In this document: piece by piece, positions 11,948-16,230 of the stretch | Layout of the letters: each line of letters begins with the position of its first letter | Numbering within the stretch: the stretch's first letter is position 1 | IMG/VR virus record: IMGVR_UViG_3300032239_001501 | Span: 32,001-96,000 of that record | DNA: 64,000 nucleotides | Strand: one strand, 5' to 3' | Source of the DNA: a virus | Lineage: Duplodnaviria; Caudoviricetes | Translations under genes and position numbers: made by a program | Notes under the pieces: generated by a model | Seen by the model: only the letters and a program-made list of their open reading frames with translations | What the model was told of the DNA's origin: nothing | The model's database searches: none

Positions 11948-13798
11948 TTATTTTGTCTTTTCTAATTCTTTGTTTTTTTGTTGGACATATGAGTATATCA
12001 TTTTTTTAAAATTTTCACTCTTAAGCAATTGTTCAAGATATTGAGTGCTAACTCCAGATGGTGCGTCTATTTTAACTGTAAATGTAACATCATCTTTAGA
12101 TGTTCTATTTGTTTCATTTACAGCAGATGTTAATGTTTGATTTGGATTTGATGCTTTATCTAATGATTCTGTTCCGTATAAACTAAGATTAGTTGATTTC
12201 GCATTTGCTGCGTTTGCAGTTGCGGCAGTAACACCTGATTTAGGTTTTTCTGATTTACCCTCTACAATATTTTTTAATTCATCCATTGCCGCCATAGACA
12301 TTTTACCAATTTCACCACTTTTATATCCTAAATTTTTGTCTTTTAAACTATTATAAATTTGTTTAGTTACCTGTTCTAAAGTTGCCGTAACATCTTTTCC
12401 TTGATCTTTAAACTTAGTACCCAATTCTGCAAAAACTTCTCCATATGATTTTTTACCTTCATATAGTTCTGATGCGGCATCTCTAATCGCGTCCGAAGCT
12501 TTTTCAAAAAATTGTTTATTGAAAATTTCAGATTTACCTAACTTATCAGATGCAATTCCAGTTGGAATTGTAATTGTTTTCCTTAAAGACTCCATATTAT
12601 CTTTAACAAAAGAAGTTGAAACTGCACCTCTAACAACCGCTTCTTTAATTGCTGCAACATCATTCGCCACAAGATCACTAGTTTTTAGTGATGCCCTTGC
12701 AATGTCTTCCATTGATTTTGGAGATTCTTTTTGTTCTTTAATTAACTTATCAAACTCCTCTTGTGTTACTTCACTTAATTTTTTTGTTGCATCCATTCCT
12801 GATGCATCTCTTATTTTAACAACATATTCTCCAGAAGCATCCATTTCAGACAAATTAGATAAAAATTGTTTGTCTGATTCATCTTTAAATTTAAGACTTG
12901 GACTAATTTGTGATAATCTTTTATCTGTTTCGGCAGCAGCTAATCCCATTTTGGTCAATGTACCTGCAGCTAAACCAGATTCTTTTTCCATCTCTTTCAA
13001 AGTAAGAATACCTTGAGGATTAATTTTAAATGTTTTTGATTTATCATCAAAATATGTAAATTGTTTTGCCACATTAGCCAAACTATCTTGTAAAGCTCCT
13101 GGATCATTAATTGACGCATTCATTAAAGCAAATGGGTCTGCAAGAGCCCCTGCAGATACTCCAAGTCTTTGAAAAGCCGACGCCATGTTAATTGCCGCCT
13201 CAGGATTCATCATTTTTTCTGCAAAACCAAGAGCAAAACTCATATCCACTCTAAGCATAGAAGCTCTTGCAGCCATTTTAGTCATTCCTTGAACTCCACC
13301 TTCAAAATTAAATTGATTAAGTTGTGATGCATTCTCAGTTACTTGTTTCATCACTGCTTTGGTATTCAATCCCAAGTCGCTTACAGTTGAAACTGATTTC
13401 TCTAATTCACCACCAATAACTCCAAATTGAATACCAACATCCGTAAATTTAGTAACAATATCTGAAACATCACCCCCTAAAACTTGAGTTGTAGCATATA
13501 ATTTGGCAACACTATCTGCAGAAGCTAATGTTTGTTTTTTTGTTGCATCAGCAATCGCAACCATTGCATCAGTAGTATCTTTAAAATCAGCCCCAAGTCT
13601 TCTCATTCTTGGTGCCGCTTCACTAACCGCAGTCATCATTTCACCAACCCTTGCTCGTGAAGAAGCAAATGCTCCTGTCATTTCATTGGCAGCTTTAGTC
13701 ATTTCTTGAGCTGATTTAATAAACTCCTTAGCACTAAAATTAGCAGCTTCCGCCATTTTTTCACTAAATCCTTCTGTTGTTGATTTGTCGTCAGCCAT
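11948..13798 (-). CDS. Tail tape measure protein
   Basis: Ala/Lys/Met-rich helical 616-aa protein directly after the tail assembly chaperone, in canonical sheath-tube-chaperone-TMP order. Confidence 0.75.
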   Translation of the reverse strand: MADDKSTTEGFSEKMAEAANFSAKEFIKSAQEMTKAANEMTGAFASSRARVGEMMTAVSEAAPRMRRLGADFKDTTDAMVAIADATKKQTLASADSVAKLYATTQVLGGDVSDIVTKFTDVGIQFGVIGGELEKSVSTVSDLGLNTKAVMKQVTENASQLNQFNFEGGVQGMTKMAARASMLRVDMSFALGFAEKMMNPEAAINMASAFQRLGVSAGALADPFALMNASINDPGALQDSLANVAKQFTYFDDKSKTFKINPQGILTLKEMEKESGLAAGTLTKMGLAAAETDKRLSQISPSLKFKDESDKQFLSNLSEMDASGEYVVKIRDASGMDATKKLSEVTQEEFDKLIKEQKESPKSMEDIARASLKTSDLVANDVAAIKEAVVRGAVSTSFVKDNMESLRKTITIPTGIASDKLGKSEIFNKQFFEKASDAIRDAASELYEGKKSYGEVFAELGTKFKDQGKDVTATLEQVTKQIYNSLKDKNLGYKSGEIGKMSMAAMDELKNIVEGKSEKPKSGVTAATANAANAKSTNLSLYGTESLDKASNPNQTLTSAVNETNRTSKDDVTFTVKIDAPSGVSTQYLEQLLKSENFKKMIYSYVQQKNKELEKTK

Positions 13799-13820: not shown

Positions 13821-13851
13821 AAGAAGGACTAATTTTTTTTTAGTCCTTCTT
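13821..13851 (-). terminator. Stem-loop, probable intrinsic terminator after the chaperone extension ORF
   Basis: Perfect 12-bp inverted repeat AAGAAGGACTAA / TTAGTCCTTCTT with a 7-nt loop; contains the TAA at 13840-13842. Confidence 0.65.
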
Positions 13852-13992
13852 GTTATTTTCAACCCATTTGTCTAATAGATATTTTCTTACAAATATGGGC
13901 ATTCGTTCAAAATCTTGCCATGTAATCTTGAGTAGTGTATTCAAATAAAAAAACTCATCAAGTTGTCCTTTTCTATAATCAGAAGAAAGGAC
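13840..13992 (-). CDS. Tail assembly chaperone C-terminal extension (gp51/gpT/gpE'-like), probably made by +1 frameshift
   Basis: 50 open codons, VLSSDYRKGQLDEFFYLNTLLKITWQDFERMPIFVRKYLLDKWVENNKKD, in the +1 frame of 13979..14722. It fills the gap to the TMP gene and has no ATG until codon 31. Confidence 0.75.
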   Translation of the reverse strand, partial: VLSSDYRKGQLDEFFYLNTLLKITWQDFERMPIFVRKYLLDKWVENNKKD

Positions 13993-14722
13993 GAAAAAAC
14001 TCCACCCCAAAACCGACGTTAACTGTCAGTCTATCTCCTGATGGGGTTGTTACTATTCGGTTCATGTCTAATCTTGGTTCATTTTCATCCATAAAATTTC
14101 TGATGAATTTTGAATCCATAATTGGCATTTGTTCAATAAATTTAGATATTTCTCCTCTTCCAGTATTTCCATCAACTTCAACAATTTGTTTTTCAAGTCT
14201 CCAAGTTACTTTAGGTACTGTTCTTCCTTGTGGATATAATTCACTCATTTTAGATATATTCATAACCTCACCATAAGTCATAGGTCTTAACTTAACAACA
14301 CTATTTGATTTTGGAAGAGTTACCAAGAATGTACCATCTTCTAACGGTTCTTGACCTTTAACAACATTAAGTTCATCTAAAACAACTGTTGTTTGAAATG
14401 GTTTTTTTGTTGCTGGATCAGTAACGTTAATTGTTAATTCGGGTCCAAAAGAAGTATTTCTTAAGAAGATTAGAATTGCTTCAACATCTCCTTCCAATAA
14501 ATCTTCAACTTTAATATCGGGTTCATATAACTTACCTTTAATTAAATTAGTAGTTACATCGTCTCCTCCTGCCATTAAAATATTTTCATCAGATGCGGTC
14601 AAATAACCAATCTTAACTGATTTCTTTTTGTTTTTGTAAAAAATTCCTTGTGATGGCAATGGAACCACATCATGAGGAAGTGTGAAATTCTGTTGTGCGT
14701 AATTTTGTGTTTGATTGTCCAT
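13979..14722 (-). CDS. Tail assembly chaperone / baseplate hub assembly protein (T4 gp26-like)
   Basis: N-terminal VPLPSQGIFY...YLTASDENIL and C-terminal VEFF; lies between the tube and TMP genes. Confidence 0.75.
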   Translation of the reverse strand: MDNQTQNYAQQNFTLPHDVVPLPSQGIFYKNKKKSVKIGYLTASDENILMAGGDDVTTNLIKGKLYEPDIKVEDLLEGDVEAILIFLRNTSFGPELTINVTDPATKKPFQTTVVLDELNVVKGQEPLEDGTFLVTLPKSNSVVKLRPMTYGEVMNISKMSELYPQGRTVPKVTWRLEKQIVEVDGNTGRGEISKFIEQMPIMDSKFIRNFMDENEPRLDMNRIVTTPSGDRLTVNVGFGVEFFRPFF

Positions 14723-14724
14723 AT

Positions 14725-14761
14725 AAAAAAAATAACCGTAAAGTTTATGCCTTTACGGTTA
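14725..14761 (-). terminator. Intrinsic terminator after the tail tube gene
   Basis: 11-bp inverted repeat TAACCGTAAAG / CTTTACGGTTA followed by a T8 tract on the minus strand. Confidence 0.8.
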
Positions 14762-14807: not shown

Positions 14808-15296
14808 TTAATAAACAAGTACACATCTATCCATTCTTAATGAAGCTGAAATATCAGCAAGAGCATCAGTTGAATATCCAAGAGTACCAAAATCCACACT
14901 TGTTAAGAAGGTTCCATAAAGAATCCACTTTTCAACAACTACTCCTGTTGGGTCCAACATCTCCAAATCAATGTCTTTCTTATAACCTGCAGCATATCCC
15001 ATACGACCTGTTACAGACTCAGCATGTAAACGAACCCACTCCATAAGAGCTTGAGATGCTGAAGGTCCAATCGGGTCTCTAAATTTAACCGAAATTTCAT
15101 CCCAATTAAATCTACCAGCAACAAATGTTGATGTATTTAAAAATTGTATTTCTGTTGAAGCAATTTTGATAGACGGTCTTTTTGCGCTTTCCACAAACCA
15201 TTCATTTATTCCTAAACTTGAAGGAAACCTCAAGATGAATCGGTTTTGACGTTTCGGTTCGTAAGGAATCGGCATTTTCATTAGTAAATCAGCCAT
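14808..15296 (-). CDS. Tail tube protein (T4 gp19-like)
   Basis: YEPKRQNRF, FVAGRFNWDEISVKF, ALMEW, YKKDIDLEMLDPTG..VEKW motifs; 162 aa, downstream of the sheath. Confidence 0.9.
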   Translation of the reverse strand: MADLLMKMPIPYEPKRQNRFILRFPSSLGINEWFVESAKRPSIKIASTEIQFLNTSTFVAGRFNWDEISVKFRDPIGPSASQALMEWVRLHAESVTGRMGYAAGYKKDIDLEMLDPTGVVVEKWILYGTFLTSVDFGTLGYSTDALADISASLRMDRCVLVY

Positions 15297-15402: not shown

Positions 15403-16230
15403 TCATTTATATTCTTTCTTAGATCCTCCAGCAGTAGAATAAGTTTTAACTATATTATCTGGTTTATCTTTAAAATGCTTACTTATCTTTTCTACATTCT
15501 TTATATCATCATCTGAAAATCCTATTTTAGGTTTATCTGGTATAAAATTATTACTTATATCTTTTTTCAGAAATGCTTTTTTATTAAGAAATGCTGCAAG
15601 ACCTTTAACATAATCCACAAATTCGTCCATTGCCATAACTTTTAATTCTTCAGGACTAGCAGCACCATTTGTAGTTCCAAAAGAAACTGGATGGTATTTG
15701 TTAAGTTCTAAATATGACCTAATTAAATCATCATCAGACATATCTTGTTCATCCGCAAATGTTCTATACTTCCTAAGATTTTTAACTAATTGGGCTTTAT
15801 CTATACCACCAAAACCATTTATTATATAATTATAAATTGCTTGTTTTAATGTATTTGGATTGTGACCTCTTGCAGTGATTATTGAAAAAATTGAACCGTT
15901 ATTTATTGCCTCTTTAAAATCATCAAATGCTGGTCCTTTTTTAGCCGTCATGGCATCTATTAAAAAATCTTTATCACCTTCAGTTCTAAAGTTTCTAAAT
16001 GGATTATCTGCATACCCAACAATTTTTTCACCTTTATAATCTATAGGTTTTTTACCTAAATCATGTCTATATTTGGCAAAATCATCAGTACTCATTCCAA
16101 TTTCATCACCATCTTCAGTTTTTACCATAATTTTGGTAGGCATATTAACAATATTATCATCCCAATCAAAGGCGTAATATTTCATATCTGGTGTATGTTC
16201 TGACTTAAATCCTTCTACTATTCTTTTCAT
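15403..16230 (-). CDS. HAD-superfamily hydrolase/phosphatase-like protein
   Basis: HAD motif I YAFDWDDNI, motif II IITARG, motif IV GFSDDD. Confidence 0.6.
   Translation of the reverse strand: MKRIVEGFKSEHTPDMKYYAFDWDDNIVNMPTKIMVKTEDGDEIGMSTDDFAKYRHDLGKKPIDYKGEKIVGYADNPFRNFRTEGDKDFLIDAMTAKKGPAFDDFKEAINNGSIFSIITARGHNPNTLKQAIYNYIINGFGGIDKAQLVKNLRKYRTFADEQDMSDDDLIRSYLELNKYHPVSFGTTNGAASPEELKVMAMDEFVDYVKGLAAFLNKKAFLKKDISNNFIPDKPKIGFSDDDIKNVEKISKHFKDKPDNIVKTYSTAGGSKKEYK

Follow-up and report, generated by a model that had tools for sequence, protein, structure and literature searches.

In long-tailed phages, tail assembly chaperones are commonly made as a short and a frameshift-extended protein, such as gpG and gpGT of lambda or gpE and gpE+E' of P2, and this frameshift is conserved (Xu, Hendrix & Duda 2004, as cited in PMC5009743). 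Phage T4 has been set apart from this rule, the G-T frameshift being described as conserved in long-tailed phages ‘except T4’ (Atkins et al., PMC5009743). The T4 proteins gp26 and gp51 figure among the chaperones of hub assembly, and the particle does not contain gp51, although assembly requires it (Leiman et al. 2010, PMC3004832). Here, we analyzed a relative of these two T4 proteins in a freshwater giant phage. Its gene lies on the minus strand of a 64,000-nucleotide (nt) stretch (hereafter, the window), which corresponds to positions 32001-96000 of the 165,509-bp genome G000 (IMG/VR record IMGVR_UViG_3300032239_001501). The gene is followed by an open reading frame (ORF) of 50 codons in the +1 frame. 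Very probably, this phage makes a short and a long protein from the one gene, and the two together would do the job of T4 genes 26 and 51.

The locus resembles those of the lambda and P2 chaperones in its arrangement: the gene adjoins that of the tail tube and immediately precedes the place where a tape-measure gene is expected, and, at the sequence level, the short and the frameshift-extended products share an N-terminal body. It differs from them in the predicted shift, which is +1 at UUU_UUU_CGY and not -1 at an X_XXY_YYZ heptamer, and in the protein itself, which belongs to family PF12322 and has a body about twice as long (243 residues).

A conserved +1 frame at the end of the chaperone gene

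The frame-0 product of the gene (P0001) matched the Pfam model PF12322, T4_baseplate (E 3.3e-8; the score of 33.9 bits exceeds the curated cut-off, 24.5), as well as phrog_150, ‘baseplate hub’ (E 2.1e-13). By its sequence, it is therefore a member of the T4_baseplate (T4 gp26/gp51) family. The fused chaperone protein had no match in NCBIfam. P0001 ends in GFGVEFFRPFF, encoded by GGT TTT GGG GTG GAG TTT TTT CGT CCT TTC TTC and the stop codon TGA, with GAG at 14002-14000, the two TTT codons at 13999-13994, CGT at 13993-13991 and TGA at 13981-13979. Read in the +1 frame from the GTC at 13992-13990, the sequence encodes the 50 residues VLSSDYRKGQLDEFFYLNTLLKITWQDFERMPIFVRKYLLDKWVENNKKD before it reaches a TAA. 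The predicted long form (P0003) would thus comprise 243 + 50 = 293 residues, be encoded by 14722..13840 of the minus strand, and pass through the junction GVEFF-VLSSDYRKG, for which a diagnostic +1 peptide would be LTVNVGFGVEFFVLSSDYR. The GC content of the genome is 30%, and we estimate from base composition that a 50-codon open frame would arise by chance with a probability of about 1.6%. A first-pass annotation, made from the letters of the window, had pointed to this chaperone end, to the 50-codon +1 ORF and to its stop inside a hairpin, and all of these were seen again. It had also stated that the -1 frame is not the one filling the gap; the -1 frame indeed shuts 38 nt past the frame-0 stop.

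We next considered close relatives, comprising 80 IMG/VR metagenomic loci with 69-94% amino acid identity and 33 unique site sequences. The sequence TTTTTTCG[T/C]CCTTTCTTC was kept in 80/80 loci, and UUU_CGY was accordingly present in all of them. The homologue alignment that the first-pass annotation had suggested as a check thus found both TTTTTTCGY and the +1 ORF conserved throughout. Each of the 80 loci also retained the early frame-0 stop, which was usually TGA and lay two codons later in five loci. The +1 ORF spanned 46-50 codons wherever the contig extended far enough, and the -1 frame was closed in every relative. At the protein level, searching 5.8 billion proteins yielded more than 5,000 relatives of P0001; the best 120 of these (71-97% identity) were 247-249 residues long, except for a few truncated gene calls. 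We also looked for close in-frame fusions by searching the 56-residue +1 ORF, as opened by a TTG upstream of the site (see below), against proteins of at least 99 residues, and none shared the extension at close range.

The extension bears the marks of coding sequence in one frame. Across 44 unique relative sequences, scanned over 48 codons, stops in the +1 frame occurred in 0/44, and stops in each other frame in 44/44. The entropy at the three codon positions was 0.49/0.22/0.82 for the extension read in +1, a profile similar to that of the upstream gene read in frame 0 (0.43/0.32/0.88). Among changes between distinct codons, the ratio of synonymous to nonsynonymous was 87:59 in the +1 frame, compared with 22:128 and 48:107 in the other two. 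These patterns indicate that +1 is the only frame in which the extension evolves like a coding sequence, and that both frames, that of the chaperone body and that of the extension, are under purifying selection.

Two relatives (L002 and L021) narrow down the place at which the frame must change. Both carry a +1-frame TAG two codons before the T-run, which, together with the frame-0 TGA, confines the change of frame to the seven codons GAA TTT TTT CGT CCT TTC TTC. The nucleotides from +7 to +21, counted from the start of the T-run, are nearly invariant, and much of this can be explained by the double coding of RPFF-stop and VLSSD.

Distant relatives share the split and vary the site

The same architecture was found well beyond the clade of the window. 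In SP-15 and HSE3 (Bacillus), LIS04 (Listeria) and Mel-JY01 (Microcystis), the homologue ends a few codons past the FF motif. It is flanked by the tube gene and, on its other side, by the next large gene, for which the LIS04 and HSE3 records give a tape measure annotation. The gap that follows the homologue in these four phages, and in Streptococcus phage GXN1, whose record annotates neither neighbour, is filled by a +1 ORF of 69-94 codons. The sites are varied: GAG TTT TTT AGT in LIS04, GAA TTT TTT CAC in SP-15, GAR TTC TTT CGT CCC in HSE3 and GXN1, AAC TTT TTT TGG in Mel-JY01 and at locus L090, and AAC TTT CTA in LR756508, all with the extension in the +1 frame. The +1 architecture also extends to a clade of huge phages (L091-L115), in which L091-L111 have TTT CTN and an extension of about 80 residues. 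Two further relatives have the extension in the -1 frame, at the heptamer U_UUU_UUC: Atu_ph07 (CAT TTT TTC) and LR756511 (GGT TTT TTC).

The family as a whole comprises 1,446 clusters at 50% identity. Among the 111 listed representatives of at least 240 residues, approximately 109 end within 12 residues of an FF-like motif, and the module is in frame in P0351 and P0367 only. A search for related loci with P0351 as the query returned no locus.

Several observations concern individual records. In Agrobacterium phage Atu_ph07 (L086, 2444-3510) and in LR756511 (L087, 3150-3390), both of them giant phages, the extension in the -1 frame is homologous. The Atu_ph07 gene has no tail genes near it, and its record lists a stretch of the extension as an ORF of its own, gp687. 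The extension is unannotated in the record of LIS04, where a gap of about 230 nt precedes the tape measure gene, and elsewhere it is called a small hypothetical ORF (SP15_046, HSE3_gp075, an ORF of Mel-JY01, and gp687 of Atu_ph07). The main gene is named either ‘baseplate hub’ or ‘hypothetical’ in public records (KT624200, OQ999172, MF418016, PP395634, NC_042013).

The extension corresponds to the C-terminal module of T4 gp51

Both T4 gp26 and T4 gp51 match the PF12322 and phrog_150 models, and the difference between them falls at the junction described above. gp26 (208 residues) ends in KEFFELL, exactly at the junction, and covers positions 14-235 of the 282 in phrog_150; gp51 (249 residues) continues in frame and covers positions 13-280. 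Appending the extension to P0001 lengthened its phrog_150 match from profile position 232 to 251. When the profile of the fused family was compared by hhalign with 93 gp51 sequences (T4 gp51 and 92 homologues), the alignment ran through the extension with an E-value of 1.8e-4. The extension alone, compared with the gp51 C-terminus, gave P 3.4e-4 and scores of 20.7-23.5, against 9.2 +/- 2.3 (maximum 18.8) in a column-shuffle control (n=60).

The joint alignment places the two kinds of proteins in register. The window fusion, in which VEFF is followed by VLSSDYRKGQLDEFFYL, aligned with no gap to the in-frame P0367, in which PEFL is followed by GVTPDYRKNLDEEIFLV, and the fusion aligned without junction gaps to all of the in-frame forms P0351, P0367 and gp51. 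A +1 junction places four residues between FF and DYRK, the spacing found in P0367 and P0351, whereas a -2 junction adds one residue. On these alignments, the extension is homologous to the C-terminal module of T4 gp51, in agreement with the gp51-like motif that the first-pass annotation had seen in it. Most simply, T4 can be read as having the same short and long pair divided over two genes, as gp26 and gp51.

Thus, T4 and the window share the Pfam and PHROG family, a short form that ends at the FF junction (gp26), and a long form with a homologous C-terminal helical module (gp51). They differ in that T4 has two genes on opposite strands, with no recoding and not adjacent to the tube gene. 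In addition, gp26, SP-15 and others retain zinc-ribbon-like motifs, the four cysteines of which are missing from the window protein.

Two CxxC-like pairs (e.g. KCPSCG and ECPNSACGED), resembling a zinc ribbon, are kept in SP-15 (L082 5920-6660), LIS04, HSE3, GXN1, T4 gp26 and many others. P0001 has no cysteine at all, and the freshwater clade carries TDPATKKP and TTPSGDR at the places of the pairs.

The predicted structure was also compared with known structures. The AlphaFold2 model of the 293-residue fusion had a mean pLDDT (predicted local distance difference test) of 88.7, with a confident body (residues 20-240) and, in the extension, helices at residues 247-265, 268-272 and 276-290 with pLDDT values of 56-82. 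The top Foldseek match in the PDB was 2OB9, the HK97 tail assembly chaperone gp13 (probability 0.82, E 0.47). In an unbiased VIA-align pass over 48,161 PDB chains, the first rank went to 3KLU, the XkdN-like YqbN (Z 5.8, root-mean-square deviation 3.6, 83 aligned residues), the second to 3FGX (Z 5.5, 4.2, 90 aligned) and the fourth to 2OB9 (Z 5.1, 4.5, 90 aligned); the sole other match with Z of at least 5 was to the helical tail. The entries 3KLU, 3FGX and 2OB9 are exactly the structurally known tail assembly chaperones (PMC9603447). The modelled core may have a chaperone-like fold, as in the lambda and P2 type of chaperone; each Z is modest, and it is the enrichment for chaperones, which is striking, that counts here. 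A sequence search of the PDB with the family profile returned nothing meaningful, the best hit being an unrelated protein at E 0.018.

Proposed mechanism and codon context

According to the mechanism we propose, most ribosomes would terminate at the UGA and release the 247-residue short form, which would correspond to gpG in lambda and to gp26 in T4. The remaining, smaller share would shift by +1 at UUU_UUU_CGU: the peptidyl-tRNA-Phe (anticodon GAA) on the second UUU would re-pair with UUC, and GUC would be read next. The product would be the 293-residue long form, the analogue of lambda gpGT, with a 50-residue helical tail that matches the gp51 C-terminal module. By analogy with G/GT, the shared core may bind tape-measure or hub proteins and the extension may recruit another tail component, at a fixed ratio; on the same analogy, an efficiency of a few percent would be expected for the shift. 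What we infer comprises the ribosomal nature and +1 direction of the shift, how efficient it is, the part played by CGU, and the binding partners.

The first-pass annotation had already proposed a programmed +1 shift that makes a long chaperone. With the conservation of the site, the coding pattern in +1 only, the architecture of distant relatives and the ungapped match to in-frame forms behind it, we regard a programmed shift into the +1 frame as very likely. It had further proposed that tRNA-Phe slips from UUU to UUC while the ribosome waits at CGU. The slip fits the TTC TTT CGT CC of HSE3 and GXN1, which lack a T-run, and the UUU_C or UUU_U of most +1 relatives; for this specific combination of slip and pause, we see the chances as roughly even. 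Pausing at a rare CGU is plausible: as also pointed out earlier, CGT is a less used arginine codon than AGA, with 138 against 1245 occurrences of about 1550 arginine codons in this genome (CGC, 5). The phage has six tRNA genes, five of them clustered at 131.3-134.5 kb. They are specific for Trp, Asn, Cys, Glu, Thr and Ser; Arg and Phe have none.

The site has counterparts among described +1 shifts. The influenza A PA-X site is UCC_UUU_CGU_C, and amalgaviruses have UUU_CGN +1 sites, as given in PMC3498833; the likeness to PA-X drawn by the first-pass annotation extends to an identical core, UUU_CGU_C. Shared with these viruses are also the +1 direction, the proposed slip of tRNA-Phe from UUU to UUC before an arginine CGN codon and, in the clade of the window, a conserved in-frame UUU_CGN accompanied by a conserved +1 ORF. 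The window differs from them in its setting, a late gene of a phage read by bacterial ribosomes, and in a family that tolerates other A-site codons. In prfB (RF2) of Escherichia coli, too, a P-site tRNA slips by +1 at a U-rich codon, as it would here, but the A site in the window holds the sense codon CGU and no stop, and there is no Shine-Dalgarno (SD) sequence three bases upstream. Schwartz and Curran (1997) reportedly described sites of the form UUU-Y as prone to +1 shifts in E. coli.

Several points weigh against this picture or parts of it. The long product and its junction are predictions from sequence, the 616-residue neighbour is a tape measure by position only, and the structural Z-scores (5-6) are modest taken singly. 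One site rule does not cover the whole family: L112-L115, which are IMG/VR huge-phage contigs, have NTT TTC CTN (or GTC) in frame 0 near 2080-2640, with no UUU_N, and fall outside the rule of tRNA-Phe moving from UUU to UUY. The A-site codon varies across the family (CGY, CAC, AGT, CTA, TGG), and in-frame TTT_CGT is not avoided elsewhere in the genome (7 occurrences against 5.5 expected), so UUU_CGU alone may be a weak site or need context. As for such context, the alignment of the relatives' sites revealed no conserved downstream RNA structure. An SD core precedes 6/132 long-ORF starts, compared with a background of 7.4%, and the leaders are A/T-rich; an SD-like stimulator is therefore unlikely, and the pattern suggests that translation in the host starts without SD guidance, as would be the case for one of the Bacteroidota. 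Finally, the GGGG run 5-8 nt upstream of the site, which is invariant in the 33 unique site sequences, remains unexplained. It includes the rare glycine codon GGG (78/1041 glycine codons in the window) and can pair with a conserved YCCU 3' of the site.

Two candidate stimulators were rejected. In a hairpin right after the site, GTCCTTTCT...AGAAAAGGAC, the 3' arm varies without compensation and alifold drops the stem. As to the SD-like sequence GGGGUGGAG, other clades have lost its GGAG, and SD usage is absent from the genome.

Alternative explanations

The long form could also arise from a ribosomal slip of -2 on the U6. Having moved back by two bases from the second UUU, tRNA-Phe would again pair with UUU, giving the junction EFFF-VLSS. 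The invariance of U6 in the clade of the window would allow perfect re-pairing, and the site of LIS04, UUU_UUU_AGU, is in its favour, as tRNA-Phe moving by +1 off the second UUU would meet UUA there. In HSE3, GXN1 and LR756508, however, where the site is TTC TTT C or AAC TTT C only, re-pairing after a -2 slip would be mismatched, yet the extension is in the same frame; the -2 junction is, moreover, one residue longer than in the in-frame P0351 and P0367. We consider the -2 slip improbable, and slippage of the polymerase, whereby one U is dropped (or two are added) on the T6 and some mRNAs encode the fusion in frame, a shade less probable still. T6 is strictly conserved, becoming T7 in the FFWP clades (Mel-JY01, L090), and a G:U-rich hairpin with a U-rich tail overlaps the site, as polymerase slippage would have it. 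Efficient slippage by bacterial polymerases usually needs runs of about 8-9, which T6 falls short of. HSE3, GXN1 and LR756508, with a T3 only (TTC TTT CGT, AAC TTT CTA), keep the +1 architecture, which points to tRNA-Phe rather than to the polymerase, and the -1 relatives use a classical ribosomal heptamer, U_UUU_UUC. At the T6 of the window itself, polymerase slippage is a minor possibility. We thus favour the +1 slip over both of these on account of the UUU_C without a T-run in the three relatives, the C or U that follows UUU in most +1 relatives, the heptamer of the -1 relatives, and the match of the +1 junction to the in-frame spacing.

Other explanations dispense with a shift. The 50-codon frame could be a gene of its own that is never fused, translated for example from a TTG at 14010, which formally opens a +1 ORF of 56 residues in the ORF listing; small ORFs are annotated here in GenBank relatives (SP15_046, HSE3_gp075, Atu_ph07 gp687). 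The statement of the first-pass annotation that the frame has no usable start was in this respect too sweeping, as the TTG exists, but it holds for L002 and L021, in which the TAG between the TTG and the T-run excludes this start. Apart from it, the frame offers only two starts, a TTG at codon 20, which is not conserved, and an ATG located 17 codons before the end, whereas the first 20 codons are already under coding selection (30:18 synonymous to nonsynonymous changes in +1). On account of the TAG and this selection, we rejected an independent start of the +1 ORF, and with natural in-frame fusions in P0351, P0367 and T4 gp51, we give separate genes very little chance. Least probable of all, to a degree that is close to negligible, is an in-frame 293-residue gene that was broken by a homopolymer error in sequencing or assembly, or that is decaying. 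A T5 in place of the T6 would indeed restore the frame with an identical peptide. Nevertheless, 80 metagenome assemblies, independent of each other, agree in the T6, the stop and the frame offset, protein clusters of 247-249 residues number more than 100, independently sequenced cultured phages show the same, and both frames are under purifying selection. Conservation in independent assemblies rules out a sequencing indel in practice, and the programmed +1 shift remains the reading that we favour.

Significance for T4 and for recoding

A chaperone pair made by frameshifting is already known as a kind. We searched the literature for gp26 or gp51 as a frameshifted protein or a tail assembly chaperone and found no paper linking them; what appears to be new is the +1 shift at UUU_UUU_CGY, its presence in the gp26/gp51 family, and the two T4 genes as an unshifted counterpart, for which we likewise found no paper. 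If so, the T4 gp26/gp51 family follows the two-product logic of long-tailed phages, in which frameshift chaperone pairs are a hallmark. The locus hence suggests a role for the poorly understood gp26 and gp51 of T4, and this idea is testable. Few +1 sites are known in bacteria and phages, and this one, widespread and strictly conserved, would be added to them; it would work in a genome without SD signals and has the same core as influenza PA-X. For annotation, the analysis suggests a correction, as public records name the main genes ‘baseplate hub’ and leave the extension either unannotated or as a tiny separate ORF.

More broadly, we lean towards the view that the gp26/gp51 family provides the tail assembly chaperone for myoviruses of the T4 type and for many giant ones, that frameshifting is ancestral, by +1 at UUU_N for the majority of lineages and by -1 at U_UUU_UUC for some others, and that T4 shows a derived state, in which duplication has left two ‘unshifted’ genes, 26 and 51. 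If true, this would close the stated exception of T4 to a universal tail-chaperone frameshift, and the +1 site of influenza PA-X, UUU_CGU, would have a counterpart in bacteria that does not depend on SD.

Gene neighbourhood and features of the locus

The tail genes on the minus strand are ordered as sheath, a 275-residue ORF, tube, the chaperone gene and a gene of 616 residues. Coordinates of features of the locus are provided in the table.

Features of the chaperone locus in the window
Feature	Position	Strand	Basis or remark
Short chaperone form, frame-0 ORF (247 residues, P0001)	13979..14722	-	PF12322 and phrog_150 matches
Shift site TTT TTT CGT (UUU_UUU_CGU), predicted	13991..13999	-	conserved in 80 loci
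+1-frame extension, 50 codons	13843..13992	-	coding signal, homology to T4 gp51 C-terminal module
TAA stop of the +1 frame	13840..13842	-	sequence
GGGG run, 5 nt upstream of the T-run	14005..14008	-	invariant; role unexplained
12-bp hairpin with the +1 stop	13821..13851	-	TATTTAT, then ATG of the next gene, on the 3' side
Tail tube gene (162 residues), upstream of the chaperone gene	14808..15296	-	phrog_4542 tail tube, E 1.5e-22; weak Pfam gp19 match
Tape-measure-like gene (616 residues), downstream	11948..13798	-	position and size only
275-residue ORF between the sheath and tube genes	15403-16230	-	no family match

For the 275-residue ORF, we found no match in Pfam, PHROGs or NCBIfam. The 616-residue protein gave weak coiled-coil matches at most in the family libraries, and none in NCBIfam. 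One Atlas lead was obtained for it, PF10145 PhageMin_Tail, with a score of 0.91 (weak), and BLASTP against the tape measure protein of LIS04 and T4 gp29 was uninformative.

The hairpin at the end of the +1 frame is a perfect stem of 12 bp, AAGAAGGACTAA / TTAGTCCTTCTT, closed by a loop of A7, and it holds the TAA of the +1 ORF at the end of the loop. Its folding energy corresponds to a z-score of -4.1 relative to shuffled sequences. On its 3' side, CTATTTATAATAAAAC is followed by the ATG of the 616-residue gene, and the hairpin could be a terminator or attenuator, or an element of translational coupling, between the chaperone gene and the next gene. Another hairpin, of 11 bp with a T8 tail, is found at 14733-14761 of the minus strand, between the stop of the tube gene (14808) and the start of the chaperone gene (14722). 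It looks like a terminator that would lower the expression of the chaperone and tape-measure genes relative to that of the tube gene. The SP-15 record has an annotated terminator at the same place (L082 5849-5881).

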